Assembly (NCBI GenBank): GCA_020848195.1
Contig: JADLAP010000081.1
Location: forward strand, 8,822 to 72,821
DNA: 64,000 bases
From: Phycisphaeraceae bacterium
GTDB taxonomy: Bacteria > Planctomycetota > Phycisphaerae > Phycisphaerales > Phycisphaeraceae
Direction: 5' to 3'
The notes beneath the pieces are model-generated. The model was not told the DNA's origin. It saw only the letters and a program-made list of their open reading frames with translations, and ran no database searches. Below, piece after piece: positions 6,183 to 22,237 of this stretch (position 1 is the first letter of the stretch; every line of letters begins with the position of its first letter). Both the position numbers and the translations under genes were made by a program.

Positions 6183-6401
6183 GGAAGCGATACCCCTGGG
6201 GCCGCGCCCACCGCAGGCCCGATTCCCGGAAGGATTGCGTGGGCGATTGTAGCGGGCTGGGCGCGACAAGTCGCGGCGCTTCATATCGATCATCGCGCCT
6301 ATCATTTCAGGACACCGAAAATCATCGGTGGCCGCAACCGTTTTCCTTCCGGGGGTGTATGCCTGTTGGATCGACCATTCCTTTCACCCGCACAGGAGGA
6401 C

Positions 6402-6722
6402 ATGGTGATGCTTATTCAGGTCAGCCCGCACGGTTCCTTGGGCAGCGAAGCGCTCTCGGCTCACGTTCAACGGGAAGTTCGCCGCGCTGTCCGGTCGTTT
6501 GAAAACCGGGTCACGCGGGTCGAAGTGCATTTCCACGACGACAACGGCCCCGCGGCGCACGGCCACGACAAGCGCGTGGTCATCGAAGCCCGTCTGGCGG
6601 GCCGGCAACCGTTCGCCGTCGCACAATCGTCGGATGATCTCTACGGCGCGATCACGGAAGCCGCGCGCAAGCTTCGACGCACGGGCATGCGCCTCATGGA
6701 CATCGATCAACACCGGCACTGA
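6402..6722 (+). CDS. HPF/RaiA (YfiA) family ribosome-associated protein, short form
   Basis: Last 106 codons of track ORF 4839..6722. AGGAGGA sits at 6394-6400, with ATGs at 6402 and 6408. RVTRVEVHFHDDNG...KRVVIEARLAGRQPFAVAQSSDDLYGAITEAARKLRR matches the S30AE/HPF fold pattern. Confidence 0.75.
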   Translation: MVMLIQVSPHGSLGSEALSAHVQREVRRAVRSFENRVTRVEVHFHDDNGPAAHGHDKRVVIEARLAGRQPFAVAQSSDDLYGAITEAARKLRRTGMRLMDIDQHRH

Positions 6723-6749
6723 TTCTTCCGTCCGGCAACACGCAGCCGA

Positions 6750-7106
6750 TCACGACAACGCCGCCAGCGCATCCTGCAGCGTCGCATCGACGCTCAGGAT
6801 GCGGTCCAGCTTGACCAGACGGAAAATTTCCGCCAGTTCGACCCCGACCTCGCAGATGCGAAGCTGGCCCCGTTTGCGGCAGACTTTCAGGTTGATGCCC
6901 ATCACCACGCCGAGAATGGCGGAGGACACTTCCCGCACGCCCTGGAAGTCGATCACCATGCGGGGATTGGTCGATTCCTCCAGCAGGGCGTGTACTTCCA
7001 GATTGAGCTGCTCCACCATGACGCGATCGTTGATGTCGCTGCGAACATGGATCACACTGGTGTCGGCGATGCGCTCGATGGAGAACGTTGTGCCAGGTCT
7101 GCACAT
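6750..7106 (-). CDS. STAS-domain anti-sigma-factor antagonist (SpoIIAA-like)
   Basis: Track ORF. ...VIDFQGVREVSSAILGVVMGINLKVCRKRGQLRICEVGVELAEIFRLVKLDRIL is a typical STAS layout. GGAGG lies upstream. Confidence 0.8.
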   Translation of the reverse strand: MCRPGTTFSIERIADTSVIHVRSDINDRVMVEQLNLEVHALLEESTNPRMVIDFQGVREVSSAILGVVMGINLKVCRKRGQLRICEVGVELAEIFRLVKLDRILSVDATLQDALAALS

Positions 7107-7181
7107 GGCTCTCCCCTCCTCTCCCCCCTTCTCCCTAGATCAACGCATCTTCCAGTCTACTCTATTGCGGAATTTCATGCG

Positions 7182-7724
7182 CTACTTTTGCATTGTGTGA
7201 ACCGGAAATGAAGACCAGTCGGTGGCGTCGGGGTGGGGCTGCTCGATCCGCCAGGCCAGTTCGCCGTGGAAACAGCGGATGTGCGCCATGAAAAACCGCC
7301 GGCGATAGCGCCAGAACAACGGCCAGATCACCCGCCGGTCCGTCTGCGGGATCGGCAGTTCCGCCAGTTTCGCCGGGTCGTGCCACTCCAGCCGGCCTTC
7401 CTCAAAGGTCTGCCTCCGCACCTGGACCGGCCGGTTCACTTCGTACAGGAACATCAGCCAGTGCATGGCGTCGTCGAAGCCGGCCTCGGACACGATGCCC
7501 GTCAGGTGCACATCGCCCGGCGTCAGCGTCAGGTCGGCCTCCTCCTCAATCTCCCGCAAGGCGCAGGCCGTGGGACTTTCACCGCTGACCTGGTCCAGCT
7601 TCCCACCGATCGGGGAGTACAGGTCCCGGTTCGGCGGCTTGACCCGGTGCAGCATCAGCACCCGCCCCGCTTCGTCGAAGAGGTAACACAGCACGGCTAT
7701 CCGATAGGGCAGCACGTCAGTCAT
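7182..7724 (-). CDS. NUDIX hydrolase
   Basis: Track ORF 7182..8024 trimmed to the ATG at 7724 (MTDVLPYRIAV...). Nudix box GGKLDQVSGESPTACALREIEEEADL. Confidence 0.8.
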   Translation of the reverse strand: MTDVLPYRIAVLCYLFDEAGRVLMLHRVKPPNRDLYSPIGGKLDQVSGESPTACALREIEEEADLTLTPGDVHLTGIVSEAGFDDAMHWLMFLYEVNRPVQVRRQTFEEGRLEWHDPAKLAELPIPQTDRRVIWPLFWRYRRRFFMAHIRCFHGELAWRIEQPHPDATDWSSFPVHTMQK

Positions 7725-7756
7725 GATGTGAAGTGTACCCGGACGGGAAGACGCGG

Positions 7757-7835
7757 GACGCGCGGGCAGTTTGCCCGCGGCTGGCAAGGAGTTTCCCTTC
7801 ATCTTGCATAGCCGCGGGCAAACTGCCCGCGCGTC
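7757..7835. repeat. REPIN-A: two inverted 26-nt REP hairpins
   Basis: GACGCGCGGGCAGTTTGCCCGCGGCT (7757-7782) and its exact reverse complement (7810-7835). Each arm contains the hairpin GCGGGCA-GTT-TGCCCGC. A third single copy lies at 32445-32470. Confidence 0.75.
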
Positions 7836-8010
7836 TTGCGTTTCGTCCTTCGGGCATTTCCCCCAATCCCTCACAACCCGCACGTCCGTCACGAACCCAA
7901 TTCCGTTTTTCAGTCGCGCATTCTTTTCCATCGCATCGCTGGCGTGACCCGCTTCCCGGTCTACGTTTGCCCTCGGAGGCTTCAAACCCGCACACGAGGG
8001 AGACAACACC

Positions 8011-8733
8011 ATGTTTCTACGCAAACTGCTTTGTGGCGCCGCACTGTCGGCGATGACCGTCTTCGGCGCGGCGAACTCCGCACACGCCGCGACGTTCTTC
8101 GGCCCATCCTCCTACACCAGCCTCGCCGATAGCCCGCTGAACACCGCCGGCCTCGGAACCTCGTTTTTCGTCGAGGATTTTGAGGATGGCGCGCTCAACA
8201 CCCCGGGCATCACCGCCTCCACCGGATTCATCCTCAACCCCAGCGCGGGCACCGACTCCGTCGACGGCGATGACGGTTCCATCGACGGCTCAGGCACGGG
8301 CGGCCGAACCTGGTACTCCGCCGGCAGCCACTCCGTCAGCTTCTTCTTCGACGCCCTCGTCCTCGGCAGCCTGCCCACCGAGGTCGGCATCGTCTGGACC
8401 GACGCCGGCTTCGCCTCGCCCGTCAACGGCATCGGCGATGTCGTCTTCGAGGCCTTCGACAACAACAACGTTTCACTCGGCTCCATCACCGGCATCAACC
8501 TCGGCGACGGAACATTCTTCGGTGGAACCGACGAAGACCGCTTCTTCGGCGTCCAGAATGTCGCCGGCATCTCCCGCATCACGCTGTCCATGCCCGGCAG
8601 CGACGACTGGGAAATGGACCACGTGCAGTTCGGTCTCGGCGGCAAAGCCGTCGTGCCCGAGCCGGCGTCGTGTGCCCTGCTCGGCCTGGGCGCGCTGATG
8701 CTCATCGGCCGGCCCCGTCGCCGCACCGCCTAA
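8011..8733 (+). CDS. PEP-CTERM sorting-domain secreted protein
   Basis: Signal peptide MFLRKLLCGAALSAMTVFGAANSAHA. C-terminus VPEPASCALLGLGALMLIGRPRRRTA (PEP motif, TM segment, basic tail). Confidence 0.85.
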   Translation: MFLRKLLCGAALSAMTVFGAANSAHAATFFGPSSYTSLADSPLNTAGLGTSFFVEDFEDGALNTPGITASTGFILNPSAGTDSVDGDDGSIDGSGTGGRTWYSAGSHSVSFFFDALVLGSLPTEVGIVWTDAGFASPVNGIGDVVFEAFDNNNVSLGSITGINLGDGTFFGGTDEDRFFGVQNVAGISRITLSMPGSDDWEMDHVQFGLGGKAVVPEPASCALLGLGALMLIGRPRRRTA

Positions 8734-8772
8734 ACCAATCCCCCCGCTTCCGCAACGCATCCCATACGACCA

Positions 8773-8816
8773 CCGGCTCGCCAGGGCGTCTTCATTGCCC
8801 TGGCGAGCCGGTTTTT
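8773..8816 (+). terminator. intrinsic terminator (usable by both convergent genes)
   Basis: 15-bp perfect stem CCGGCTCGCCAGGGC / GCCCTGGCGAGCCGG, 9-nt loop, then TTTTT. Confidence 0.75.
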
Positions 8817-8857
8817 CGGGGCCATTTGCAGCCTATGGAGCGCCGCGACGTGTCGCG

Positions 8858-11800
8858 TTACGGGATGATCTGCTTCAACTCTTCCGCCGTGATCGCCTTG
8901 GCGTGCGGGACAATCACGTAATGCAGCGTCTGCCGCTGGCCCTTCTTCATCCGCGGGCTAAGCGAAATGCTCAGCGACTGCACCTGATAGGACATCGGAG
9001 GAATCAGCACGGCGTCGTACTGACGCGGGAAGATCACGGCCGCGCCGGCGCCGGTGGGACCGCTGATGTCCACCGCCCGCAAGGGCACGAGGCGCGTGTC
9101 GTCCTGCGGCACGGCTTCCGCAGCTTCGCCCGGCTCGCGGTGGCGCGGCGGGGCCTTGCGCGACGGCAGCACGCCGATCTTGTCGCCTTCCTTCCAGTCG
9201 CCGGCGAAGGTCCGCACCACGCGGTTGTCCACCGCATACCACGGGATCGATTCACAAAGGTTCATCAGGTCCACGTCTTCCATCGCCGTGATGTCCACAT
9301 CGACCAGGATGCGATTTTCATCGCAGACGACGGTGCGGACCCAGGACAGGGGCTGATTGAAGAACTGGCCCGTGCGGGTCATGACGCCGGTGTCGTCGTT
9401 GAACTGGACCCAGGGCGTGTCGTAGCCGGCGCAGTCGTATTCAGGGATGTACATGCCCTTGTCGTTGCGTGCGCCGGGGTTTTTGCTTCGGGTCCAGAGG
9501 TTGTTGACGTAGAAGACGTCCTGGTTGCTGGAGAGGATGATCGGGCCTGCCTGGGGGACGAAGACGGAGGAAAGCCCGGCGAGTTTGCCCGCCATCATGC
9601 CGCGACTGCCGTAGCCGCATTCCGTCACGCTGCCGAGGAATTCGCTGGAGCCGTTGGCGGTATGGATCACGCCCATGAACCCGCGCCACAGCTTGGCTGT
9701 TTCTCCGCCGGCCATGATGGTGTAGTACGAAGGCTTCTTGATGAAGAAGAAGGCGTTGTCGAAGTTGCGGATAAATGAGCTTTCCTGGAGGCAGGGCAGC
9801 GTCTGTGCCGGAGCCTTCGGCGCGGGCTGGCCGGGCTTGAGATTGCACATCTGGCTCCAGTAGGTGAAGGCGTCGAAATAATCCCGGCCTTTCATGGCGT
9901 CGAACAGCGGCACCGGCGCGCTGGGGAACGGCGTGCGGTTGGACATGTCGGTCGGACAGGTCAGGTTGTCGCTGATGGTGCCGTTGACAGGCAGCGCGAG
10001 ATGCGCTTTGAGCCGGGTGTATTCCTCGAACCGGTCGAGCATCGCCTTGCTCTTGACCCGCGCGTGGAACGTGCGGCAGTAGTACATCGTTTCATTGCAG
10101 TATTCCGCGTCAAAACCGCCGCCGTCGGTGGGATAGCCCGCGCCGGACCAGCCCAGATCGCAGGCGTAACCGTAGCCCAACCGGCTCTTGGTGACGTACG
10201 GAGACGGATCGGGATCGACGCGGCCCAGCACGCCCGGCGTCGCCCAGCGTTCCACGCCGCGCAGCATCAGTGCTTCGAGATCGGCGTCGCCCTTGATCGC
10301 GTCGATCGCGTCGGCCATTTCCTGCAGGTGCATGATCCACTGGTTGGTGGTTTCGCCGCTGTGCGCCTGCGACCGGCCATAGGCCCAGATCTGCAGCGTC
10401 TTGCGCCAGGCGTTCATCGTCTCGGAGGGAACGCCGGTCTTGTCGCACAGATCGCCGATCTGCGCGAGGATCTCACTGTGTCCGCCATCGTGGAAGTTGT
10501 ACCAGCCGGAACGGTAAGGCAGGCCCCAGAACTGGTCTTCGCGGATGGTTGGATATGTCTTTGGCCCGTCATTGTGGCCGAAGACCAGGTTGGGACCGAG
10601 GCGCATGGCGTCTTCCATGATCGTTTGCAGCATGGCGCGACGGACCAGCACGGGCGACTGGTAGTAGCCGTTGCCCGGCGCGTTCAGTTGGGCAGCCATG
10701 GGGAAGCCGCATCCCTTGCCGCTGCGGGAAAATTTCTGTTCAAACTCCTTGTCGCCCGTGTTCTTGAACCGGCCATACGTCGGACTGGCGGGGTCGAGGT
10801 CCTGCGTTTCCAGCAGGCGGGGCAGTTCATTCGATGTCGGCGAATCGGTGCCGTACATCGGGGACAGACGGAACGGAGTTTCCGCCGGTTTGCCCGTGTA
10901 TTTCAGGTCTTCGGGCTTGAGCGACATCGCCCAGTCGAGCAATTTCCGCTGGCAGTCGAAAAACGTCCACACGCCCGGGGCACGCCATTCCATGCCGCCG
11001 TGGATTTTCCGCGCTGTCTCCGCGTCGGGACACATCACGAACGGCGCGCCTTCCACCGACAGGCAGCACCCCGGCTGTTTGCCCGTCAGGCTCACCTTCA
11101 GCAGCGCGTCCTGCGTCGCGCTCTTGTTGAGGTAGTAACTGTAAGCGGTACGCGGGGTCGTCGTGTTCAGCACTTTTCCCGCTTCATCCGACACCGTCAT
11201 CGTCCAACTGTACGGCGACACTTCCTCGGTGACGCCGAAGCCCACGTCCTGCGCGCCTTTGGGGACATACAGGTACGCATCGCGCAGGCGGTCTTGATGG
11301 ACATACAGCGGACCCTGGCCGGGATGGACGCCCATGGGCAGCGGCCGGCTGGGCGTGATGGAAATCCAGTGGTCCCACGACGCGATGACCACGACGCGGT
11401 ACAGCCCCGCCTTCGCGGTTTGGGGCACATTCAGCGACACATGCCGCGCGGGCAGCGTCTGAGGGTTGTCCAGCAGCGGCGAGCGTTCCTTGCCTGCCGG
11501 ATAGCCGTTGGGGCTGACGTGATGGTGATACTCGCGGTAGCGGAGATCCTGAAACGGATCGTAGATGCCGTCGCGGTAGCGTTCGTTGCCGGAGACGATG
11601 CCGTCGTCTTCGAGGATGGTCTGGGCGACGATTTCATCCTTGGGTCCGATGACGAGGAAGAACGCCGGCCTCGGGCCTTGCATGTAGACGTTCATGTCGC
11701 GCGCGGTGAAGTTCAGCTCGAACCCGCCGCCGGTTTCGTCGAGGAGGTTGAAGATGACCCACTCGCGCGGCCGCCACAGCACGTCCGGCCCCTGCCAGGC

Positions 11801-11956
11801 CGTGCCCGGCGACTTGCCGCGCCAGGCGGGAACCGTTTCATCCGGCGTCCGCGCGTGCAGCACCGGACCAAGCGCCAACGACAACAGAATCGACATCATG
11901 AGCCGCCAGGCCCAACAGGGACCCGACATCGGGCAATTGGACATGATCGTGAACAC
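8858..11956 (-). CDS. large secreted hypothetical protein (1032 codons), probably glycan-active
   Basis: Track ORF. Signal-like RLMMSILLSLALGPVLHA. Lies 14 nt downstream of the preceding 1198-codon gene, so probably the same operon. No motif I can name. Confidence 0.7.
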   Translation of the reverse strand: MFTIMSNCPMSGPCWAWRLMMSILLSLALGPVLHARTPDETVPAWRGKSPGTAWQGPDVLWRPREWVIFNLLDETGGGFELNFTARDMNVYMQGPRPAFFLVIGPKDEIVAQTILEDDGIVSGNERYRDGIYDPFQDLRYREYHHHVSPNGYPAGKERSPLLDNPQTLPARHVSLNVPQTAKAGLYRVVVIASWDHWISITPSRPLPMGVHPGQGPLYVHQDRLRDAYLYVPKGAQDVGFGVTEEVSPYSWTMTVSDEAGKVLNTTTPRTAYSYYLNKSATQDALLKVSLTGKQPGCCLSVEGAPFVMCPDAETARKIHGGMEWRAPGVWTFFDCQRKLLDWAMSLKPEDLKYTGKPAETPFRLSPMYGTDSPTSNELPRLLETQDLDPASPTYGRFKNTGDKEFEQKFSRSGKGCGFPMAAQLNAPGNGYYQSPVLVRRAMLQTIMEDAMRLGPNLVFGHNDGPKTYPTIREDQFWGLPYRSGWYNFHDGGHSEILAQIGDLCDKTGVPSETMNAWRKTLQIWAYGRSQAHSGETTNQWIMHLQEMADAIDAIKGDADLEALMLRGVERWATPGVLGRVDPDPSPYVTKSRLGYGYACDLGWSGAGYPTDGGGFDAEYCNETMYYCRTFHARVKSKAMLDRFEEYTRLKAHLALPVNGTISDNLTCPTDMSNRTPFPSAPVPLFDAMKGRDYFDAFTYWSQMCNLKPGQPAPKAPAQTLPCLQESSFIRNFDNAFFFIKKPSYYTIMAGGETAKLWRGFMGVIHTANGSSEFLGSVTECGYGSRGMMAGKLAGLSSVFVPQAGPIILSSNQDVFYVNNLWTRSKNPGARNDKGMYIPEYDCAGYDTPWVQFNDDTGVMTRTGQFFNQPLSWVRTVVCDENRILVDVDITAMEDVDLMNLCESIPWYAVDNRVVRTFAGDWKEGDKIGVLPSRKAPPRHREPGEAAEAVPQDDTRLVPLRAVDISGPTGAGAAVIFPRQYDAVLIPPMSYQVQSLSISLSPRMKKGQRQTLHYVIVPHAKAITAEELKQIIP

Positions 11957-11970
11957 TCCAGGGTGAGAAA

Positions 11971-14900
11971 TTACTTCGTGATCGCCGCTTCCGCGCGGCC
12001 GTCGGCAAGGTCCTTGGCCGTCAGCGTGATCGTCAGTCCGTCCGGGCCGCGCAGGCTCGCCGGGCCGGTGCTGACGATCTGAAGTTTGCCGTCCTGCTTC
12101 CTGCAGGCGAAATGCGAGGGAATCGTCACCTCGTCGCCCGCTTGTATCTTGAACACCACAAAGGCGTCATCCTCTTTCACCGCGCCCTCCGGCGGCGTCG
12201 CGGCCAGCTTCACCGTCTTGCCGTCCATCGTGACAATTTCCGTCTCGAAGCCCGAACGGGGGAAGCGGATGCGGCTACGCTCATACCCGCCCTTGACCAC
12301 GCGCATATCGTGGTACAGCAGCGCGGGATCTTTCTCATCAATCTTCCATGCGTGCATCCGCTGCTCGACAAACGGCGGCAGATTCGCCAGGTCGATGCGA
12401 TAGCGCTGCTCACCGAAGCTCGACACGGCCGCGATGGTGTAGCCCGTGCTCAGTTGCGGATCGATCCGGTGCTGCACGAACAGCATCGTGCCGGCCAGCG
12501 TCTTGTCCGTCGGCAGCGGCAGATCGGACTGCACGATCAGCGCGCTTTCGTCGGGCTGGCCGGTCATATCGCCGATCACGCCCAGGAGTTTGAGACGCCA
12601 TGAAGGTTGAAGGTCGAGTTGCCAGTTGCCGACGCGCAGTTTGCTGCCGTCGTAGAGCGAGAGGTAGCCGGCTTCGGGAATGGCCGCGCCGCAGCGTCCG
12701 GTCAGTTCCACCGCCGGCGAGCCGGCCTTGGCGGGCGGCACATACGCTTCGCCGTGGAGCGTGCTGAGCGCCCAGAGACTTCCACCGGCCATCAGGTCCA
12801 CTTTCGTCGTCACGCCGCCGCCGGTCTCGTCCTTGGCCACATGCACCACGTCCACGCTCTTGACCGCCGGTTCCTGGCTGGGGTTCCGCGGCTCCAGCAC
12901 ATGCACGAACGTGCTTTCCAGCCCCGGTTTTTCCGCCACGCGGGAGGGAATCAGCATGTGCATCGCATCGCGGAACGCGACCAGGCCGCGGACCTGCTCG
13001 CCCGTGTTCGGATCGGTTTCCTCCAGCAGCGCTGGCCAGGGCGCGTACGCGCCGATGATCTGGTTCTGTGTCGTTTCGCTGCCCGCCACATCGCCCCACA
13101 AGCGGAAGTTCACGTCATGCAACAGCTTCGGCCAGTGGCTGTATCGCTCCAGCGTTTTGGGATTTTTCGGCAGGAACTTGTGCGGCTCGATGAGATAGTC
13201 CGCGCTCCACACGCCCCGCGGCGTCGCATAGCTGTGCAGCTTTTCGATCAGCTTCGGCGCTCGGGCATAGTGTTGAATGGTTTCGCCGGTCAGCTTGTCA
13301 TAGCTGATGCTTTTGTAGCCCATATATTCAAACAAGTTCTTCGCTTCGATCGGCGCGGGCTGCGACAGCGTGGTCTGCTTCAAATCGCTGGGCACATGCC
13401 AGTACAGGTCGTGCCTCTGGCCGCCATGGATTCGGAAGGTGTCCAGTGCCAGCGACCGGCCATTGGGCAGCGTGAACATCGCCACCTGTCGGCGGAAGAC
13501 GTCCACCGGATTGGGCCGATCCTTGAACAAGCCCGCGGCGGAAGCGTCCACGAATTGCGCCCAGTAGCCGGGATCGCTCAGCGGCATGCCGCCGCGGTAT
13601 CCCATCAGTTGCGTGGGACCAAAGGCATAAAGCCAGTAGTCCACCATGGCCAGGCAGTGCGATTCGGGCAGCATCGTGTACGTGTGACGCCACGGCCCCC
13701 ACTTGTCCGCCTCGCAGGGCGAGTCCATCATTTCCAGCGGATAATCCTTGCTCAGGCTTTTCCAAGGCTCCTTGTCCGGCTCGATGTAGCCCACGCCGTA
13801 GCCGAAGTCGGGCAACACTTCCACGCCTTCGTAGAACATCTGCAGGTTCATCCGCGAGTAGTGCGAATGATTGCCGGTGGGCATGTGGTCGAGCGAGAGT
13901 TCCATCCGGCTTCCCGCCTCGCCGCCGCGCAGCATGGTGTAGCCGTACACGGGGAAACACTGCGACAGTTCATGCTCCGGATACGACACCTTGTCCGGGG
14001 CCGGAGGAGGCATCCAGTCCCACAGGCCGCGGAAAAAGCGGTTGTGCTCGTCGGCGTGCTTGGATTCCACGTTGTACAGCGTCGCCACCGGCCGGAACGT
14101 CAGCTTCTCGATCTCATGGAGGATGGGATAGCGGTCCTTCAGGTCCACCCCGCCGAACACCTTGGTCATCCAGCGGTAGTTGATGATGCCGTAGGTCATC
14201 ATCGCGTAGTTGAAGGCGGCATCGTGCGGCATGCCGTCCACGAGCCAGTTGTTGGTCAGGTACATGTCCACGATGGACAGCGCGCGGTTGAAGAGATACT
14301 CGTCGCCGGTGAGGATGCCCAGGACGGAGCCGCCGCGGATGTAGCCGTAACTGGTGTTGCCCACGGTCGGCGGCGTGACGCGGGTCATCTGCAGCGCGTT
14401 GCTGAAGATGTCCAGCCGTATCTTCCGCTCCCACGCCATCTCGTCGTTGTACTTCTCCTTGCTGTACTGCTTTACAGCCGGCGTGTCGCGGATCAGGTCG
14501 AACGTCGTGCCGATGTCGGCGAGGTGGTCCAGCACGCCGTCGGTCCAGGAGCTGATGCCCCAGTTGAGCTTGGCGTAGTTGTAGTCGTAGATGCTGTGGA
14601 ACCAGAAAGGTTTGTTGTTCCAGTCGCGGAAGGGCCCCTGCGCGACGGTGGCGAGGTATTCATCGCGGGTCAGGTAGTCCTTGCCGGCCTCATTGCGCGC
14701 CAGGCCGTGACCGATCGACTGACTCACCAGCGGCAGCGAAGGATACACATCGGCAAAGCGGTCCAGCAGCACGGTCAGGATGCGAACAGCCTTGGGATCG
14801 CCGGTTTCATAGACCCGCAGCGCCAGATCGGGAAAGACCTCGAACATGATGATGCGAAGCCGCTGTCGCCAGGCTTCGCCGGCCGGGCTGATCCAGTGGC

Positions 14901-15567
14901 GGCGATCGGAGTTGAAGCTCGGCGGCGCGTTTTCCGTGCCCGGCGGGGCATGGAAGCGATACGCATGTTTCGTGCCATCGAGATGCGGAATCTCCACCGT
15001 GACGTTGGGTTTGAGCGCCCAGTCGGCGGGCATGTCCTCATCCCGGCCATAGATGGGATGGTTGCCGTCGAGCGTGTAGGCGATGAAGGGATTCTTGAGG
15101 AATTGTTCATCCGTCATGCCGCAGCCGCGGAAGAAGGGATCGTTGGAGAACGGGTCCTTGCCGGCATAGTTGGGCTGCCCGCCGCCGGCGGTGACGGGTG
15201 CAATGTCGAGGACCATCGCGGCCCACTGGTCTTCGGGAATGTTCAGCCACAGCTCCGCGCGGGTGCGGTTGGGATAGGCCGGCAACAGGTTCGGATGCGT
15301 GCCCGCCTTGGCCCCCTTGAGGAACGCTTCCGTGTAGATGCGCTGCGGAATCTTGTAGCGTGATTCGCCGGGCATGGCTTTGAGGATCGCGCGATCATTG
15401 ACCGGAGGAATGACGTGCGCCTCCGTCGCAGGTTGCGTGGCCGCCGCTGGTGCTTCCGCCCGCGCGGCCAGCGTCAGCCAAGCCATACAGATCAGACATC
15501 CCGCGATCGTGGCTAAACCAGGTTTGTTCATGTGGATCGTCGCCTTCATCCAAACGTTGTCGGCCAT
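11971..15567 (-). CDS. large secreted protein with heparinase II/III-like region (putative polysaccharide lyase)
   Basis: Track ORF. Signal-like LATIAGCLICMAWLTLAARAEA (the start may be the ATG at 15531). MELSLDHMPTGNHSHYSRMNLQMFYEGVEVLPDFGYGVGY resembles the H-x-H...Y core of heparinase II/III-type lyases, from memory only. Confidence 0.65.
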   Translation of the reverse strand: MADNVWMKATIHMNKPGLATIAGCLICMAWLTLAARAEAPAAATQPATEAHVIPPVNDRAILKAMPGESRYKIPQRIYTEAFLKGAKAGTHPNLLPAYPNRTRAELWLNIPEDQWAAMVLDIAPVTAGGGQPNYAGKDPFSNDPFFRGCGMTDEQFLKNPFIAYTLDGNHPIYGRDEDMPADWALKPNVTVEIPHLDGTKHAYRFHAPPGTENAPPSFNSDRRHWISPAGEAWRQRLRIIMFEVFPDLALRVYETGDPKAVRILTVLLDRFADVYPSLPLVSQSIGHGLARNEAGKDYLTRDEYLATVAQGPFRDWNNKPFWFHSIYDYNYAKLNWGISSWTDGVLDHLADIGTTFDLIRDTPAVKQYSKEKYNDEMAWERKIRLDIFSNALQMTRVTPPTVGNTSYGYIRGGSVLGILTGDEYLFNRALSIVDMYLTNNWLVDGMPHDAAFNYAMMTYGIINYRWMTKVFGGVDLKDRYPILHEIEKLTFRPVATLYNVESKHADEHNRFFRGLWDWMPPPAPDKVSYPEHELSQCFPVYGYTMLRGGEAGSRMELSLDHMPTGNHSHYSRMNLQMFYEGVEVLPDFGYGVGYIEPDKEPWKSLSKDYPLEMMDSPCEADKWGPWRHTYTMLPESHCLAMVDYWLYAFGPTQLMGYRGGMPLSDPGYWAQFVDASAAGLFKDRPNPVDVFRRQVAMFTLPNGRSLALDTFRIHGGQRHDLYWHVPSDLKQTTLSQPAPIEAKNLFEYMGYKSISYDKLTGETIQHYARAPKLIEKLHSYATPRGVWSADYLIEPHKFLPKNPKTLERYSHWPKLLHDVNFRLWGDVAGSETTQNQIIGAYAPWPALLEETDPNTGEQVRGLVAFRDAMHMLIPSRVAEKPGLESTFVHVLEPRNPSQEPAVKSVDVVHVAKDETGGGVTTKVDLMAGGSLWALSTLHGEAYVPPAKAGSPAVELTGRCGAAIPEAGYLSLYDGSKLRVGNWQLDLQPSWRLKLLGVIGDMTGQPDESALIVQSDLPLPTDKTLAGTMLFVQHRIDPQLSTGYTIAAVSSFGEQRYRIDLANLPPFVEQRMHAWKIDEKDPALLYHDMRVVKGGYERSRIRFPRSGFETEIVTMDGKTVKLAATPPEGAVKEDDAFVVFKIQAGDEVTIPSHFACRKQDGKLQIVSTGPASLRGPDGLTITLTAKDLADGRAEAAITK

Positions 15568-15592
15568 TCAAACGCACGTGGGAAACGGGTCA

Positions 15593-15743
15593 TGACGAGC
15601 CGCGACCGTGAGGGAACGGACCGCTGCCCTGACGAGCCGCGCGCGTAAGCAAGCGGACCGCATTTGGCCACCGGGGATGCTGGTTGTCACCGTCACACCC
15701 CCCTTGATCGAGGGTGGTCCGCTCCCTTACGGTCGCGGCTCGT
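15593..15743. repeat. REPIN-B element (inverted REP pair plus an extra degenerate arm)
   Basis: TGACGAGCCGCGACCGTGAGGGAACGGACCGC (15593-15624), degenerate second arm 15630-15661, inverted partner GGTCCGCTCCCTTACGGTCGCGGCTCGT (15716-15743). The spacer is the reverse complement of the spacer in the 29159-29270 copy. Confidence 0.7.
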
Positions 15744-15835
15744 GGCGGCAGGAGCAATACTTTTCATGTGTCCATGCTGAAACCGATGGACAAAGCTTGT
15801 CGTCAAGGTTGTCGTCGAAGAACCAGATCAGCCTG

Positions 15836-16606
15836 CTACGGCAACGGCTTGAACTGGCCCCATTCCTGGCTGTTCAGCCAATCGGGATATGGGTAGTTCA
15901 ACACTTCATATTTCTGGAAGGAGACATGACCATCGGCCTGAGCGACAGTCATCGTGGTTCGTTTCATGTGACGGTAGTCTTCATATCCGCTGGCGGGGTT
16001 ATAAACGAAGGGGTTGCCCGCGTAGTAATCGCTTCTGGTATCGCTTTCGAGCAGCGCATAGGCTTTGCTGGGTTGCTTGATTTCCTGACGACGATCGATG
16101 GCATCCCTGCCATGGCTGGGATATCCACCAAAGCCTTCCAGGGGCAAGCCGTAGGGAAATTCCCAGACGTAATAGGGAACTCGACGGTTGTACGAAGGAC
16201 ACAACATGATGCCTTTATAGCCGGCTCGAATACCTACCCAGTGGGCGCTGTTCGTCGGCTGGGTATCGCAAATGCCGTCCAGAAATTCCCGCATGAGATA
16301 TTCCCACGGGCCATCGCTGCCGGGCAATACGCGGTATGCGGGCGTCTGGCCTGCGGGCAGATTGCCAAAAATGGTCGGCATCCATTCCTTGTAAGCGTCA
16401 CAATATTGGCTCCACGCCAGCATGATCTGCTTTTCATTGGTCCCGCACTGAAGCTGCATCGCCGACTGCCTTGCCGACTGCAGCGCCGGCAGCAGGATGG
16501 CGATGAGCAGCGCAATGATGGAAATCACGACGAGAAGCTCAATGAGGGTGAAGCCGCGTTGGCCCGGAAGGGGAGATTTCGTCATTCTGACATGTTTGAG
16601 CATCAT
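15836..16606 (-). CDS. DUF1559-type protein with prepilin (type IV pilin-like) N-terminal cleavage/methylation leader
   Basis: Track ORF 15836..16639 trimmed to the ATG at 16606 (AAGGAGA 6 nt upstream). Leader ...[29 protein letters not shown]-terminal [20 protein letters not shown] motif. Confidence 0.85.
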
Positions 16607-16672
16607 GACTGTTCTCCTTTGATGGGATCGCAATGACATATAACCGGATATCGACCATCCACTTCTGGAAGT

Positions 16673-17434
16673 TTACGGCCGATTGCTGAACTGGCCCCAT
16701 TCCTCGCTGTAGAGCCAGTTGGGGTAGGGGTATGCTAAGACGTCATACTTCTCGAAGGTGACATGGCCATCGGCCTTGGCTGTGGTCATGTTGGTGAGGT
16801 TCATGTGCCGGATATCGGAATAAGCCCCCATGGCATTGCCGACCACACAGTTGCCCGCGTAGTCATTGTTAGGCCAGTTGCTTTCCAGCAGTGCATAGGC
16901 CAGGCTGGGTTTCTTGATTTCCATACGACGGTCGATGGGCAACAAACCATGGGTGGAAGCACCACCAAAGCCATCACCGGGCAACGCGTAGGGCACATCC
17001 CAAAGGTAATACGGATTCTTTTTGGTATAGGACGGACAACGCATGATTCCCTTGTAGCCGGGTTTGATGGAGGCCCAGTGATTGTTGATGCCCGAGTCGG
17101 GATGGCCCACGATGTCGTCCAGGAAATCCCGCATCAAGTAATTCCACGGCCCAGGGGAGCCAGGCAGGCTGCGATTGGGCGCCGACAGGTTGCCGAAAAA
17201 GGACGGCATCCATTCCTTGTAGGCGTCACAATACTGGCTCCACGCCAGGATAATCTGCTTCTCATTACTGCCGCACTGAAGCTGCTGCGCCGATTGCCGC
17301 GCCGACTGCAACGCCGGCAGCAGAATGGCGATGAGCAGCGAAATGATGGAAATCACGACGAGAAGCTCAATGAGGGTGAAAGCTCGCTGGCCTTGATGTG
17401 GAGATTTTGTCAATTTGGCATGGCGCATCATCAT
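16673..17434 (-). CDS. DUF1559-type prepilin-leader protein (close paralogue of 15836..16606)
   Basis: Track ORF 16673..17440. AAGGAGA favours the ATG at 17434. ...[28 protein letters not shown] and [20 protein letters not shown]. About two thirds identical to its neighbour by eye. Confidence 0.85.
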
Positions 17435-17496
17435 GACCATTCTCCTTCTGGAGGCAGGGTGCTATAACCGGGGATCGACCATCCCGGTTCGCCGGT

Positions 17497-18270
17497 TTAC
17501 CGGTTCCTGAACTGGCCCCATTCGTCCGTAACCCACCATGCTGCGATGCTGAACACGGCGTCGTCATTGCGCCGGAACGACACATGACCATCGGCGATGC
17601 CCAGCGTGACGTTGTTGCCACCCATGTGGCGGAAATCCATGCGAGGCAGAATGTTGTAAATAAAGGCGTTGCCGGCGTAGGGCGGACTGTTGCTGTTGGA
17701 ATCCGCGAATACAACGCCTTTGCTCGGACCACGCAACTCGCCGCGTCGAAGAACGGGCAGCAAACTGCCAAATGGATCACCGCCTATGCCATTGAGCATC
17801 ATGCCGTAATGCAGTTCCCACAGATACCGGGCATACGGGGCCTGCTGCATGCTGGGACAGAGACAGATGCCCTTGTAATCCGCGGTATAGGTGGCGTTTC
17901 CGTTGCCGGGGTTGTTGTAATCCGCGATGGTAAAATCCAGGAACTGGCGCATCAGGAATTCCCAGTAGCCGCTGGAACCCGGCAGATACCGGTAGCTGTT
18001 GTCGGGAGTCGGAGCGCCGCCACGGCTGCCGACGAACGGGCAGAGCCATTCCTTATACGCGTCGCTGTACATGTTCCACGACAGGAGAATCTGCTTCACG
18101 TTCGTTCCGCACTGCACCTGCTGCGACGCTCGCCGCGCCGACTGCAGCGCCGGCAATAAAATCGCAATAAGCAGCGCGATGATGGAAATCACGACGAGAA
18201 GTTCGATCAGCGTGAATCCCTTGCCCAAAGTCAATCGAGGGGACCGAACCACATGGACATGTTGCGACAT
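17497..18270 (-). CDS. DUF1559-type prepilin-leader protein (more divergent paralogue)
   Basis: Track ORF. AAGGAG 8 nt upstream. ...[28 protein letters not shown] and [20 protein letters not shown]. Confidence 0.85.
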
Positions 18271-18281
18271 GGTGTTGCTCC

Positions 18282-19391
18282 TTAGCCGGCGTTGACAGGT
18301 GAGGGACCGAGGGACCCGCCGTCCCGGAAGTCCGCGTCGAACAGAATCGAAATGGGAACTGCGTTGGGATCGGCCCGGCGACGCTGGATGATCTCCGGCA
18401 CCGCAAGACCGAGTTTTTCCATGGGAATCACCACCGACGCCAGCGTCGGCGTGCTGCTCAGCCCCTGCGGAAACGCGCCATAGCCCACCACGCTGATCTC
18501 GCCCGGCACGTCGATGCCCCGCTCGCGCAACTGCTCAAGCACCTCCAGCCCCATGTTGTCCGATCCCACCACGATGGCGGTCGGACGCGGCTTGAGGACC
18601 AGGATGCGGTCTAGGCCGCGACGCACGGCGTCGCCGAGGCTGTCCCGTTCCCAGTCGCGCATCTCCACCACGACGGGCATCGGTTCGAGGTCCGGCTGGC
18701 AGGTCGCCAGGTTCGCCCACGCGCCGTGCCGCGGGCCGTTGCGGGTGCCCACGCGGTACTCGTTGCTTTGCGGGCCGTTGCCCGCCTGGTATTGCTTATG
18801 CAGCGGCGAGTTGATGTCGACCAGGCTGAACCACGCGATGCGGCTGTGGTTCAGCGCCGCCAGACGGTCGAAGACCATCGCCGCCGTGCGGTGTTCGTTG
18901 ACCCCGATGCTGTCGACGCCCTGCTGGAAGTCGTTGCCTCCGCAGAACACCAGAGGCACGGCCCGGCTCAGCTCGATCAGCCAGGGGCGGGGCAGGTTCT
19001 GACGCAGCACCAGTCCGTGCGGCCGAAACTCCTCGCACAACGCGCGAACTTCATCAAACGTCTGGACCTCTTCAATCTTGAGCTTTCCCCCCACCTCATC
19101 CATGCGATCTTCCAAACCTCGGAAGAACATCTTGCTCAGATAGCTCTTGATCGCTTCCTCGTGCATGGCGATCAGCGGCAACAGCACGCGGAGGCAATGA
19201 TCGGCACTGCCTCGACGCACGGCCGGGGGCATGACCATCGCGGATGTGGCGCGATAGCCCAGCTTCGTCGCCACCTGCCTCACGCGAGCCTGGGTTTCCA
19301 CCGAAACGCGACCAACGCCGCGAAGCGCGCGGGAAGCGGTCATCTGACTCACCCCCGCCCGACGAGCGATATCCTGAAGGGTCGGCGACAT
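18282..19391 (-). CDS. LacI-family transcriptional regulator
   Basis: Track ORF 18282..19427 trimmed to the ATG at 19391. N-terminal [28 protein letters not shown] followed by a periplasmic-binding-protein-like sugar-binding fold. The stop lies 11 nt before the next DUF1559 start. Confidence 0.85.
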
Positions 19392-19398
19392 AAGTGTT

Positions 19399-19427
19399 AA
19401 TCTATCACAGCCGCGCGCCCCGGTCAA
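19399..19427 (-). promoter_or_regulatory. sigma70-like promoter, apparently giving a leaderless LacI mRNA
   Basis: Minus strand reads TTGACC (19427-19422), 17 nt, TAGATT (19404-19399), AACACTT, then ATG (19391). Confidence 0.45.
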
Positions 19428-19566: not shown

Positions 19567-19603
19567 CCGCCGCTTGCGGCGTCGCGGAAACACTCTCCTC
19601 ACC
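19567..19603 (+). repeat. REP-C copy
   Basis: CCGCCGCTTGCGGCGTCGCGGAAACACTCTCCTCACC; 36/37 identical to 22516-22552 and in the same orientation. Confidence 0.7.
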
Positions 19604-19666: not shown

Positions 19667-22237
19667 TCAATTGATCGTCAGCATCACTTCCACCTGTTGC
19701 CCGGTCTGGAGGCAAGTCTCCGTCGCCAGGGTAATCGTGACGTGGTTGGTGGTGTTCACATGAGAGGAGTCGATTGCCTGGCCGTTCACGGTGACGGTGG
19801 CGTTGCGTGATTGCACGTCTGCCGGCAAGACAAATGTCAGCGTGCGCAGACGTAGCTGGCCCCAACGCACAGCGATGGTTTCCCGCTGCGTGTGGTCGTC
19901 GCGTTGTTGCGTGAAGAGGCCCCAGCCCTCCCCGGCTGTGAAGAACGAAACATGGTCTTGAGGTCTCCAGATCGGAGCAAAACCGATCCGGCTTGCGGGA
20001 CCATCGTACTCAAATCCCTGGCATGCCAGCAGCACGCTCCAGATGGACATTGCCCTGGCGTAGAACTTGCCGCACTCATCGTCGCCGAAGGGGTTGCCGC
20101 TGTATCCCCAGGCGTCCCAGGACCGCGGGGGCTGTTCGCAGCCGGTCAAGCCGGTTCGCAGCCGGCCGTCGTAGCGGTTCGCCGCGGCGTACAGGACCGT
20201 GAAGGCTTCATCAAGCAAACCGGTCTGGATCATCAGGGCGGCGGCGGCGTATTCGAAGCCGCTCATGACCTCATCGGCGTAACCTATTTCATTGATTTGA
20301 TGCGAACCTGGGCGTCCCCCCCTGGGCCAGGCGCATTGCACGAGGCCCGCGTCCGCATCGTCCACGAACTTGCGCGGCAACTGCGGAATATCGCGGAAAT
20401 TCGGGCGGAAATTGTAGCCGAACAGGGATCGCATCGCGGTAAGGACGTGTTCTTTCGGATACAGCCAGCCGCCCCCCAACTGTCGCACCCACCATTGACC
20501 GAGAAGCTGGTCAATGTAGCAACCGGTCAAGTAGTCCTGCAGCGGCGGCGTGTCTGGAATCTGGATGAAGTATTCACCGTTGAATAGCTGCTGATCCTGG
20601 TTCCTGCCGCCATTTTCGCGTATCTGTCGATAGAAATCGGCCGAGGCTGTGTCTCTCTGACATCTGGCCATCTGTTCCGCGACAGCCAGTGCCGCGAGAT
20701 ACATGCTTCCCATCCACGAGGACGTGCCGCTCTGATCGCCGTCCATGCCATGCTGAGGCCCGGTGAGCATGCCGTCCGGGATGCCCGCCTGCAGACAGGC
20801 TTCGTCCGTCGTTGTTCCCGCGACATTCCAGCGGATAATCAGATAGTCCATGGCCCGCTTGATCGTCGGCCAATGTCGAGCCAGCCACGTGTTGTCCCGG
20901 CACAGAAGATGTTCGCGGAAGCAACTGAGGACAAAGCTGCATTGTCCGTCAAAAGCCGGATATTTGAAGGTGAAACGCACCGGCAACATGCCGTCGGGAC
21001 GGACGTTTTGAATATCTTCTTCGCGCATCGTCCGGCCAAGGGCTGGAAACAGCCGGGCGTGGGCTTGTGCATATCCCCAAACATGGGTGGCATTGCCCGT
21101 GCAGCAGCCTTCGGCGGGATGACATCCCTCCCAGGCGTAAAAGAAACCCCTGGCGTCCCAGTTGCACGTCATGCTCCGGAGGATGGCCACCTGTGAGCTG
21201 ATTCGATCGAGCAGCCAGTGTGGCAGGTTCGACGCATAGAAAGTCTGGTTGTAGAGCTGCGTCTGACTGGTCAGTTCCCGCTGACGACTGATGACGTCGC
21301 TGGCCACGCTCAAGGCGTCGGGCCACCAGTTCGCATACTGGTTTCCCTGATGGCCCTCCACGGGCGAAGTGTTGGGAAAGTGCCACGCGAGGATGAACGT
21401 GACGGTCTGTGTCTGGCCGGGTTCCAGCATGAATTGCACCGACAGCGCGCCGTCGTGGGTTGTCCCGGACGGCGCGGGGTTCGTCTGGTCAAGAACGGGA
21501 ATCCGGCCCGTGGCAGCAAACGTTTCGTAAAGCGATGACAGGTCGCTCCATGCCGCGCAGCCCTGGGCGTCCTGGGCGGTTGTGGCCAAAACCATGTCGC
21601 CATAATTCGCACTGTCCTTCGGCAACGTGGTCGTCATATGCAGCATGGTGGCCTTGCCGTTGCGGATCACACGATTGGCGTTGCCCTGGTAGGCAGCGCA
21701 GCGGCGACCCTCGATGCGTTCCTCGCCAGTGCGTATGCCGATCGCATTCTGCTGCGTCGCCAGAAAGCCGACCTCGATGCGGCTGTTGCTTTCATTGCTC
21801 GCGGTCACATTGAAAATCGCGCCGGGAATCGCGGAATCTTTCTCGTTCAGCGGCACCAAGGGACTGAACGCTTCCAGCTCCAGCCGCACGGGCAGTTCAG
21901 GATCGTCAAAGGCGTACCATCCGAAGGGATACTCGCCCGAGAATCGCAGAGCCTTCATGTGGGAGAATGGACCTTCGGCAACGGTCTGCATCGCGCGGAT
22001 CACCGGTGACGCCGATGACGCCTTGCATCGCACCGCGAAGAAGCTGTTCGGCAACGATATGGCCCGATAGTTCTGAAATATCTGCCACTTATGGCGCCTG
22101 GCCTGCCCGTTGATCTGGATGGGGCCGGCGGCGATCCCGCCAAGGGGAAGGCTGATCGCCGAAAGGTTGTCTTCCCGGTACACGCGGCGACGGCCGCGAT
22201 CGAATAGCTGAGCCTGGTCAAAGAGGTCGGGTTTCAT
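19667..22237 (-). CDS. GH116-family glycoside hydrolase (GBA2-type beta-glucosidase / glucosylceramidase-like)
   Basis: Track ORF. N-terminal LPLGGIAAGPIQINGQARRHKWQIFQNY and catalytic-region FYAWEGCHPAEGCCTGNATHVWGYAQAHARLFPALGRTMR match the conserved GH116 N-terminal and DUF608 signatures as I remember them. Confidence 0.85.
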   Translation of the reverse strand: MKPDLFDQAQLFDRGRRRVYREDNLSAISLPLGGIAAGPIQINGQARRHKWQIFQNYRAISLPNSFFAVRCKASSASPVIRAMQTVAEGPFSHMKALRFSGEYPFGWYAFDDPELPVRLELEAFSPLVPLNEKDSAIPGAIFNVTASNESNSRIEVGFLATQQNAIGIRTGEERIEGRRCAAYQGNANRVIRNGKATMLHMTTTLPKDSANYGDMVLATTAQDAQGCAAWSDLSSLYETFAATGRIPVLDQTNPAPSGTTHDGALSVQFMLEPGQTQTVTFILAWHFPNTSPVEGHQGNQYANWWPDALSVASDVISRQRELTSQTQLYNQTFYASNLPHWLLDRISSQVAILRSMTCNWDARGFFYAWEGCHPAEGCCTGNATHVWGYAQAHARLFPALGRTMREEDIQNVRPDGMLPVRFTFKYPAFDGQCSFVLSCFREHLLCRDNTWLARHWPTIKRAMDYLIIRWNVAGTTTDEACLQAGIPDGMLTGPQHGMDGDQSGTSSWMGSMYLAALAVAEQMARCQRDTASADFYRQIRENGGRNQDQQLFNGEYFIQIPDTPPLQDYLTGCYIDQLLGQWWVRQLGGGWLYPKEHVLTAMRSLFGYNFRPNFRDIPQLPRKFVDDADAGLVQCAWPRGGRPGSHQINEIGYADEVMSGFEYAAAALMIQTGLLDEAFTVLYAAANRYDGRLRTGLTGCEQPPRSWDAWGYSGNPFGDDECGKFYARAMSIWSVLLACQGFEYDGPASRIGFAPIWRPQDHVSFFTAGEGWGLFTQQRDDHTQRETIAVRWGQLRLRTLTFVLPADVQSRNATVTVNGQAIDSSHVNTTNHVTITLATETCLQTGQQVEVMLTIN

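Follow-up and report, generated by a model that had tools for sequence, protein, structure and literature searches.

The stretch analysed here, called the window throughout, is a 64,000-nucleotide piece of a contig from a Phycisphaeraceae bacterium (assembly GCA_020848195.1, contig JADLAP010000081.1, positions 8,822 to 72,821), and the present work concerns a minus-strand locus of this window in which genes coding for small pilin-like proteins lie between the gene of a LacI-family repressor and the genes of two large proteins, named here A and B. The order of the elements on the minus strand is promoter, lacI, three tandem prepilin-type genes, a repetitive extragenic palindromic (REP) inverted-repeat element, the gene of A, the gene of B and a hairpin (Table 1). 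An open reading frame (ORF) map, combined with a gene selection based on the GC content at third codon positions (GC3), placed seven consecutive minus-strand ORFs at the coordinates given in an initial annotation of this DNA, whose gene architecture thus stands.

Table 1 Features of the locus, of a second module in the window and of two comparison loci. Positions are those of the window, except for the last two rows, where the locus is named.
Feature	Position	Strand	Evidence
Promoter and candidate LacI operator	19394..19427	-	promoter scan and sequence
LacI-family repressor, 369 aa from ATG 19391, first gene of the unit	18282..19391	-	PF00356 and PF13377
Prepilin-type gene 1, 257 aa	17497..18270	-	N_methyl 2.5e-6; PF07596 20.7 bits, under cut-off
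Prepilin-type gene 2, ~251-255 aa, own AAGGAG	16673..17440	-	N_methyl 7.6e-8; PF07596 24.6 bits
Prepilin-type gene 3, ORF of 267 aa	15836..16639	-	N_methyl 1.2e-8; PF07596 23.7 bits
REP/REPIN, inverted 28-nt REP pair and degenerate third copy	15574..15751		repeat search, RNA fold
Protein A, 1198-codon ORF (gene caller 1171 aa), Sec-exported (predicted)	11971..15567	-	AlphaFold2, Foldseek
Protein B, 1032-codon ORF, likely start ATG 11944, Sec-exported (predicted)	8858..11956	-	AlphaFold2, Foldseek
Hairpin after B, perfect 16-bp GC-rich stem, without U-tract	8772..8812 (approximate)	-	fold analysis
GH116 glycoside hydrolase, neighbour	19667..22237	-	PF12215 8e-51 and PF04685 2.7e-32
Module 2, LacI	46604-47719	-	
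Module 2, prepilin, 19 nt downstream of LacI	45727-46584	-	
Module 2, 818-aa signal-peptide protein, no Pfam/NCBIfam match	43210-45666	-	
Module 2, alpha/beta-hydrolase esterase	42034-43203	-	
Module 2, PcRGLX-like rhamnogalacturonan-lyase-type protein	39110-42058	-	
Small ORF after long DUF1559 gene, example	L012:10878-11279		
Small ORF after long DUF1559 gene, example	L027:11035-11514		

The promoter proposed ahead of lacI was recovered, with a -35 hexamer TTGACC (19427-19422), a 17-nt spacer and an extended -10 box TG-TAGATT (TAGATT at 19404-19399). An imperfect dyad, GTGATAGATTAACAC (19408-19394), overlaps this -10 box. The candidate LacI site at the promoter reads TGTGATAGAYTAACAC, and the dyad predicted from the sequence as an operator, GTGnTAnnnTAnCAC, is kept over the -10 box of an orthologous lacI promoter at L005, one of two related loci (L004 and L005) of a Lentisphaeria metagenome-assembled genome (MAG) described below. 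The operator-like 15-mer occurs once in the window and once across 119 other loci, at the L005 lacI promoter, and no second copy, for example before the gene of A or the GH116 gene, was found in the window with up to three mismatches allowed. The assignment of the regulator to the LacI/GalR family was confirmed by matches to PF00356 at 3.4e-15 (residues 16-59 of the long ORF) and to PF13377 at 4.9e-17. The TTG at 19427 was rejected as the LacI start (ORF 18282-19427) because it corresponds to the first bases of the -35 hexamer. The start at ATG 19391, located 7 nt past the -10 box, is backed by a full-length alignment to the L005 LacI, which is 40% identical and best conserved in the helix-turn-helix region. 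Given these 7 nt, the lacI mRNA is probably leaderless.

The first prepilin gene follows lacI after exactly the 11 nt initially reported (stop TAA at 18284-18282, ATG at 18270), with an AAGGAG overlapping the lacI stop, and the AAGGAG noted ahead of each of the three genes is indeed present. For gene 3, the likely start is an ATG at ~16606 after the AAGGAG, leading to a protein of ~256 aa. As tandem duplicates, the three genes repeat every ~830 nt, and their products share 46-66% identity (66% between genes 2 and 3, 46-48% between genes 2 and 1). All three proteins exhibit the N_methyl motif with the cleavage site G/FTLIELLVV, the slash marking the cleavage, so that the type IV prepilin leader attributed to them is confirmed. 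This class III signal of type IV pilins and pseudopilins was detected by PF07963 (1e-8 to 2.5e-6) and by TIGR02532, above cut-off, gene 1 included, and the signal with its Glu+5 is strictly kept in all nine aligned prepilins. The DUF1559 label given to the trio is marginal, two genes scoring 23.7 and 24.6 bits for a PF07596 cut-off of 23.3 bits and the third lying below it at 20.7 bits, and the match covers only model positions 1-32 to 1-61 of 268.

The best N-terminal matches of the trio in NCBIfam include GspG, GspH and GspI. However, the GspG equivalog model (TIGR01710) reached 28-31 bits for a cut-off of 88.85, over model residues 1-50 only (the N-terminal 50 aa in the case of gene 1), the GspH, GspI and GspJ models were far under cut-off, and none of the GspG-K equivalog models matched more than the N-terminal helix. 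No family of C-terminal domains was found at E <= 0.1 in the NCBIfam scan, where all matches fall in the N-terminal ~100 residues. A profile search of the PDB with the prepilins matched the helices of PilA, PilE and GspG only (3e-12 to 2e-5), with no PDB homolog of the globular domain detectable by sequence. This domain, of ~200 aa, is about twice the part of the GspG model (134 positions) that lies beyond the matched N-terminal helix. We found also, in the alignment, a motif RH-X11-DGHV in the trio and H-X9-DG in the L004 and L005 relatives; an H-X9-DG motif names the prepilin-type processing-associated protein model that we take to be TIGR04294. Judged from their sequences, the small proteins are members of the type IV pilin/pseudopilin superfamily, are not GspG-K equivalogs and are only borderline DUF1559 proteins. 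Their closest homologs, in Phycisphaeraceae MAGs, are 52% identical, which makes an origin of the window in this family probable, and the context of one close homolog (P0087) is housekeeping and uninformative.

The base composition of the trio differs from that of its neighbours, with a GC3 of 0.66-0.73 versus 0.81-0.84. Taken together with the prepilin gene of a second module (45727-46584), the prepilin genes (15836-18270) have a GC3 of 0.66-0.78 and a GC1 of ~0.53, the flanking lacI and enzyme genes having a GC3 of 0.81-0.84, and the 2-kb composition profile drops to 0.557 at the prepilin genes. A separate origin, expression-linked codon use and gene conversion among paralogs are possible explanations. 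Another ORF with a prepilin-like base composition (49543-50271) was considered and is not a pilin.

Both A and B carry predicted N-terminal Sec-type signal sequences, in agreement with the secretion initially proposed for both. Single-sequence and family-profile searches against Pfam, NCBIfam and the PDB gave nothing above threshold for either protein, so that only fold comparison was informative. The families are small, with 21 clusters for A and 59 for B among 5.8 billion in a word-indexed search; an exhaustive profile search returned 367 representative clusters of the B family among 1.84 billion. The only Pfam domain in 50 distant relatives of B was one dockerin. AlphaFold2 models built on the family alignments were confident, with a predicted local distance difference test (pLDDT) score of 87.6 for A and 91.2 for B. 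The model of A showed an (alpha/alpha)6 toroid followed by a beta-sandwich, and that of B N-terminal beta-sandwiches, a helical toroid and a C-terminal beta-sandwich, so that both display the toroid and antiparallel beta-sandwich of the heparinase-like fold. With Foldseek, A was closest to the polysaccharide lyase (PL) family 17 enzyme Alg17c (E = 2e-18 to 4e-18, target TM 0.56-0.60), then to PL40 ulvan lyase, PL12 heparinase III, PL15 and PL21, all five with a probability of 1.00; the heparinase II/III-like structures concerned are 4nei (E = 4e-18, target TM 0.60), 9vtk, 4mmh, 5jmd and 3a0o. B was closest to BtPL33HA (8r6z, 3e-9), then to HepC and to the xanthan, hyaluronate and chondroitin AC lyases of PL8, with a probability of 1.00 to PL33, PL12, PL8 and PL15; other structures matched were 4mmi, 1x1h and 1egu. 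Unlike these lyases, to which they are only 9-14% identical, A and B are 300-500 residues longer and have extra N- and C-terminal beta domains.

The description of A as heparinase II/III-like, made in the initial annotation, is therefore adequate at the level of the superfamily and fold and not at that of the family, since A scored 14 bits (E = 0.036) against PF07940 for a cut-off of 24, B giving no match. Weak Hepar_II_III_C matches were present in 16/20 members of the A family at a loose threshold, the best at 1.9e-7. The residues N377, Y427, H540, H542, D560 and H610 are invariant in the family and are catalytic candidates only; H540, H542, D560 and H610 form an HxH...D...H pattern in and just past the weak Hepar_II_III_C region. 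From its model, A is a putative polysaccharide lyase distantly related to heparinase II/III (PL17/PL12/PL15-like), and B, which had been left unassigned, is likewise lyase-like in its model, a putative PL33/PL12/PL8-like lyase of a family without a Pfam model. Both large proteins thus have, in their models, carbohydrate-active, polysaccharide-lyase-like folds, recognised by structure and not by sequence.

The REP element lies in the 268-nt gap between prepilin gene 3 and the gene of A. A REPIN had been recognised at this place, and we found the inverted REP doublet (15595-15622 and 15716-15743, 93% complementary) as well as two further sites with related copies in the window (4411-4513 and 29140-29270), shuffled sequence containing none. 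The predicted RNA fold of the element is at -117 kcal/mol (z = -3.6), well beyond shuffled controls. The copy at 29161-29270 is again an inverted doublet, and the REP sequence had no matches in 119 other loci. In the orthologous cassettes L004 and L005, the prepilin gene and the gene of A are only -4 to 9 nt apart and the element is missing, so that it is a later, secondary insertion in the window lineage.

From lacI to B, the genes share one strand, are separated by short gaps and are preceded by one promoter-like site, and the promoter scan showed no sigma-70-like site in the REP gap. From this layout we infer a single transcription unit reaching from lacI to B. The gap of 14 nt reported between A and B corresponds to a GTG start of B; the ATG at 11944, preceded by GGAG, is more plausible and the gap is then 26 nt. 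Of the strong terminator announced after B, the perfect 16-bp GC-rich hairpin stands, its region folding at -76.8 kcal/mol (z = -6.0), but it has no U-tract, sits between convergent genes and was not called by the terminator scan. The gene convergent with B (8011-8733, plus strand) codes for a protein whose C-terminus bears a PEP-CTERM sorting signal (weak NCBIfam matches, the best at 9e-6), a signal that implies an exosortase system in this organism.

The arrangement seen at this locus occurs a second time in the window. Module 2 (39110-47719, minus strand) follows the same grammar of LacI, prepilin and secreted protein, and its promoter, TTGACT / 17 nt / TAGATT, is overlapped by a dyad ATCTA-N8-TAGAT. 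In another phylum, the Lentisphaeria MAG GCA_041690595.1 contains LacI, a prepilin and an A homolog in the same order at the two loci L004 and L005, with A homologs 43-47% identical to A, prepilins of 234-244 aa and gaps of -4 to 11 nt. When the N-terminal helix was stripped, the globular domains of the window trio matched only the L004 and L005 prepilins among ~96 sampled (1e-8 to 4e-21). The L005 promoter carries TGTGATAGAyTAACACT over the -10 box, with the same spacing from the -35 as in the window. By these sequence comparisons, LacI, the operator-like site, the prepilin and A are retained as an orthologous cassette across two phyla, and the prepilin-LacI-enzyme link proposed for a single locus thus recurs both inside and outside the window.

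Further genes were noted around these cassettes. L005 holds another cassette (1828-6641) with a GntR regulator, a prepilin, a pectate-lyase-like protein and an AXE1 esterase. The A homolog of this locus is followed (L005:13644-22849) by a polysaccharide pyruvyl transferase gene, three GH29 alpha-L-fucosidase genes and a 1148-aa A-like paralog, a gene content that hints at a fucose-containing acidic polymer as substrate in this relative. Strict pairing of A with B was rejected: B homologs lie elsewhere beside melibiase, GFO_IDH_MocA, GH32 or sulfatase genes, mostly in other carbohydrate-active enzyme (CAZyme) contexts, and the two families are found together again only in L090, where the gene of B (1052 aa) points away from LacI and the A gene (1414 aa) behind it, a prepilin being absent between them (2832-11531). 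The large unannotated neighbours of A homologs in L001 (1150 aa) and L003 (1122 aa) were compared with B and rejected as members of its family, the L003 protein being a distant A-like paralog (E = 2e-36). An identical 91-aa ORF lies ~100 nt downstream of the A homolog in two metagenome loci, L088 (3480-3755) and L093 (11602-11877); it has the full prepilin leader and helix, then a stop, and may represent a prepilin shortened by truncation or a frameshift, or else a pilin of very small size.

The gene neighbourhood of prepilins was then considered across 80 independent loci from Planctomycetota, Lentisphaerota, Verrucomicrobiota and Armatimonadota, obtained by a genome-collection scan with a prepilin alignment. 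Prepilin arrays were divided by mature length into short (<=275 aa) and long ones, and genes were found by scanning all ORFs with hidden Markov models (HMMs), the signal-peptide rule and the ORF calling being crude. A co-oriented LacI/GntR-type regulator stood directly upstream of 6/46 short arrays, 0/34 long arrays and 4/749 other genes, giving for the short arrays an odds ratio of 28 (p = 5e-6) in a locus sample ranked by likeness to a window prepilin, mainly to its N-terminal helix, so that a sampling bias is possible. An independent Pfam scan found Peripla_BP_3 in 8/38 upstream neighbours. The genes downstream of short arrays are large, and 19/25 of them start with a signal-peptide-like N-terminus compared to 132/490 other genes (odds ratio 8.6, p = 1e-6). 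Those matched by Pfam include GH78, GH16, heparinase-like/DUF4962, DUF4838 and lectin-like domains. The association of DUF1559 genes with LacI regulators and secreted enzymes predicted across genomes is accordingly true of the short subclass, present mostly in Phycisphaerae, Lentisphaerota and Victivallales, and does not extend to the canonical long forms of Planctomycetia.

Those long DUF1559 genes of Planctomycetia (L012-L076) are typically followed instead by a small co-oriented ORF of 120-190 aa, lipoprotein-like, with a consensus lipobox-like LxxxGCG and a CarboxypepD_reg match in 3/16. The window proteins and the canonical N_methyl + DUF1559 (PF07596) proteins have in common the class III signal, a conserved post-helix segment, a C-terminal H-X(9-11)-DG-H and massive paralogy; the window proteins differ by their mature length of ~240 aa compared to 300-400 and by a match limited to the first positions of the model, in addition to the different genes that surround the short and the long forms.

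We consider it likely that the prepilins are functionally coupled to the secreted enzymes encoded with them, and the short pilin-like proteins probably take part in polysaccharide breakdown. The block from lacI to B is tentatively read as an operon for polysaccharide degradation, repressed by LacI and inducible by sugar, in a Phycisphaeraceae-like planctomycete. Several observations weigh against this reading. Only ~13-21% of the short arrays have a sugar-type regulator directly upstream. A prepilin is adjacent at only ~7/17 A-family loci, and ~10/17 are without one, so that a strict co-occurrence of A and prepilin was rejected and the enzymes do not strictly need a prepilin; in L091, the prepilin beside a more distant A homolog has an unrelated globular domain. 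The prepilin family comprises at least 6509 clusters at E <= 1e-5, a size at which some adjacency is expected by chance. The operon contains no transporter, the window contains no core pilus ATPase, platform or peptidase gene, and the 268-nt REP hairpin might end transcription and uncouple A and B from the LacI promoter. The link between prepilin, regulator and enzyme is facultative.

For such an operon we infer a scheme of co-transcription, filament assembly, glycan binding and lyase activity on a polymeric substrate, as follows. As long as no degradation product of the target polymer is bound to it, LacI would keep the promoter of its own gene repressed, and this one promoter, with its -10 box under the LacI operator, would drive lacI, the three pilin-like genes and, past the REP hairpin, A and B. 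By stabilising the pilin mRNA that precedes it, this hairpin may keep the level of pilin mRNA above that of the enzyme mRNA. A prepilin peptidase would cleave the pilin-like proteins at G/F, and a shared machine of the type IV pilus or type II secretion kind, encoded elsewhere, would assemble them. On the resulting pilus or pseudopilus, the locus-specific globular domains would catch a uronate-containing polymer and deliver it to A and B, the glycan-binding prepilin being the functional counterpart of SusD or of the solute-binding protein in other polysaccharide-utilisation loci (PULs).

A PilM/Amuc_1101-type cluster lies 38 kb from the prepilin operon in the same window (57038-62706, minus strand) and may be part of the machine assembling the prepilins. 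Its first protein, of 766 aa, matches the Amuc_1101 family of pilus-complex proteins (1.2e-68) and TIGR01175 pilM; two co-oriented proteins of 442 and 647 aa without family match follow, and a 12-nt tandem repeat (61030-61077) is found inside the pilM-like gene.

The identification of the globular domains as the glycan-capture component of the locus, by analogy with known systems, is possible, if somewhat doubtful. It is favoured because the prepilin is the sole recurrent non-enzymatic, extracytoplasmic component of these loci, because its globular domain is large and locus-specific and because polysaccharide binding by fibres or pili has been proposed for Planctomycetes and adhesin-type modular pilins exist. 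Fibre-mediated polysaccharide uptake has been suggested in these bacteria with the players still to be found (PMC12673574), an adhesin role has been described for a modular pilin (PMC8179133), and type IV pili are said, in a work cited in PMC11131199, to help adhesion to chitin.

In the type II secretion system (T2SS), the recognition of cargo is ascribed to GspC, GspD and the GspHIJK tip, and to our knowledge no cargo-specific pseudopilin has been described in a characterised T2SS. The main rival explanation, which we hold to be unlikely, is that the small proteins are nevertheless such pseudopilins and join the pseudopilus of a T2SS, where they would recognise periplasmic A and B, as adaptors or as subunits of the tip, and drive both through the outer membrane. 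The Sec-type signal peptide, the entry route of T2SS cargo, is present on A, on B and on 76% of the large downstream neighbours of short prepilins, but it fits a periplasmic location equally well, and the GspG, GspH and GspI models which come out best for the N-terminal part remain, like those of the whole GspG-K set, far under their cut-offs and confined to the helix. In favour of an adaptor, the orthologous cassettes have kept the globular domains of the prepilins along with the enzyme, and T2SS export was proposed by the authors of the Verruconatronum alginivorum study for co-clustered alginate lyases (PMC13274419); on the other hand, many A- and B-family genes have no prepilin nearby, so that secretion is not generally prepilin-dependent. 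Rather than glycan capture on a filament or cargo export, the prepilins could also serve as membrane-tethered periplasmic binding or sensing proteins, in which the cleaved N-terminal helix would hold a substrate-binding domain at the inner membrane, and which would never enter a filament and would bind oligosaccharide products for a transporter or a signal pathway. Glu+5 matters for pilin filament assembly, and its strict conservation in the nine aligned proteins, which a plain membrane anchor would not need, makes this improbable, together with the lack of a transporter or sensor partner in either window module and with the PDB profile search, which matched pilin helices only. In favour of such a tethered protein, the genes of solute-binding proteins in Gram-positive sugar operons stand directly behind the regulator, as the prepilin genes do here, and the Pfam name for DUF1559 is SBP_bac_10; moreover, N_methyl + SBP_bac_10 proteins of Tuwongella immobilis were recovered in detergent-soluble membrane fractions (PMC8567305).

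Finally, the coupling itself could be only apparent, abundant prepilin copies and the REP element having been inserted by duplication and drift into an ordinary lacI-A-B lyase operon. The family is indeed enormous, with 67-100 paralogs per genome (PMC13274419, PMC8567305), the lower GC3 of the prepilin genes is compatible with a separate origin, and the A-family loci devoid of a prepilin point in the same direction. We regard this as very improbable, since a co-oriented prepilin stands between regulator and enzyme with gaps of -4 to 19 nt twice in the window and again in L004 and L005, since two phyla have both kept an orthologous prepilin along with A, LacI and the operator, and in view of the two odds ratios given above and of the induction of a pseudopilin on alginate (PMC13274419).

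The closest described case is the alginate-induced cluster pgaptmp_000046-60 of Verruconatronum alginivorum, which contains a pulG-like pseudopilin with 67 paralogs, a pseudopilin being among the proteins over-expressed on alginate (PMC13274419, 2026). There, the pseudopilin is mentioned in passing. As in the window, a many-paralog pilin-like gene lies within a polysaccharide-lyase cluster of a bacterium of the Planctomycetes-Verrucomicrobia-Chlamydiae (PVC) group, and substrate induction is known in that case. The V. alginivorum cluster codes for recognised PL15, PL39 and PL29 lyases and a uronate transporter, whereas the lyase-like proteins of the window are unclassified and are accompanied by three tandem prepilins, with lacI in first position and without a transporter, the likeness being described here in terms of gene content. 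The window locus resembles SusC/SusD PULs and LacI-regulated Gram-positive ABC loci in combining a substrate-responsive regulator, a non-enzymatic surface or periplasmic component and secreted CAZymes, but it has no SusC/SusD pair, TonB-dependent receptor or ABC system, and the prepilin stands as the non-enzymatic component. With GspG-K and type IV pilins, including Streptococcus sanguinis PilB, the window prepilins share the N-terminal methylation motif and the alpha-1 helix; unlike GspG-K, they are encoded in catabolic operons and not in a cluster of pilus or T2SS machinery. The modular PilB is a precedent for an extra functional module on a pilin (PMC8179133).

The massive expansion of DUF1559-type prepilins in Planctomycetes evoked in the initial annotation agrees with published counts: Planctopirus limnophila has 68 such paralogs, of which two are essential, and Tuwongella immobilis has 91-100, and no function has been assigned so far to this family (PMC10632474, PMC8567305). 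The CAZyme clusters of Planctomycetota were described as functionally uncharacterised in a 2024 survey (PMC11131199), and how Planctomycetes capture and take up whole polysaccharides is an open question (PMC12673574). LacI-regulated lyase operons, the expansion of the prepilin family and one pseudopilin in a lyase cluster are already known. The suggestion of pseudopilins in glycan operons was thus not entirely new, being preceded by the V. alginivorum cluster; what appears to be new is the grammar of regulator, prepilin and secreted enzyme, specific to the short subclass and statistically enriched. Also apparently new are, on sequence grounds, the cassette common to two phyla with its operator-like site and, as judged from the models, the unannotated lyase-like families represented by A and B.

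Prepilin/DUF1559 proteins form one of the largest paralogous families of Planctomycetes and relatives, and the locus and its orthologous cassette offer a compact unit with a repressor and its candidate operator, a dedicated pilin-like partner and two lyase-fold secreted enzymes. If the coupling is functional, the short subclass of the family, at least, would gain a role, and the locus would point to two candidate new lyase families. A wider reading, which we consider rather unlikely, is that short prepilins are general and interchangeable substrate-specificity modules for polysaccharide use in PVC bacteria. It would span Phycisphaerae, Lentisphaerota, Kiritimatiellota and Verrucomicrobiota, with a shared machine loaded locus by locus under the control of sugar repressors and with hypervariable globular domains that bind the cognate glycan or the cognate enzymes. 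If true, it would represent a third PUL paradigm beside SusC/SusD and ABC binding-protein systems and explain the DUF1559/H-X9-DG expansion, and A and B would be the founding members of two new polysaccharide lyase families.

The gene adjoining lacI was announced as a GH116 hydrolase, and this holds for the neighbouring gene, which has the Glyco_hydr_116N domain and the catalytic DUF608 domain (PF12215 and PF04685). It probably lies outside the unit: the protein has no signal-peptide-like N-terminus, and a 15-bp hairpin and a 32-nt repeat separate its gene from the lacI promoter. For these reasons we treat it as a neighbour, probably a separate, cytoplasmic unit that is not in the LacI operon. 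The 32-nt element (GGrGAGTGTTTCCGCGACGCCGCAAGCGGCGG, with an internal hairpin) is found on both sides of the GH116 gene, at 19567-19598 and 22516-22547, and constitutes a second repeat family distinct from REP. Elsewhere in the window, a 78-nt direct repeat, 92% identical between its copies (23458-23535 and 24652-24729), has one copy at the 3' end of a gene coding for a 1560-aa PQQ/beta-propeller protein (24653-29335) and the other ~1.2 kb downstream, within unannotated ORFs.

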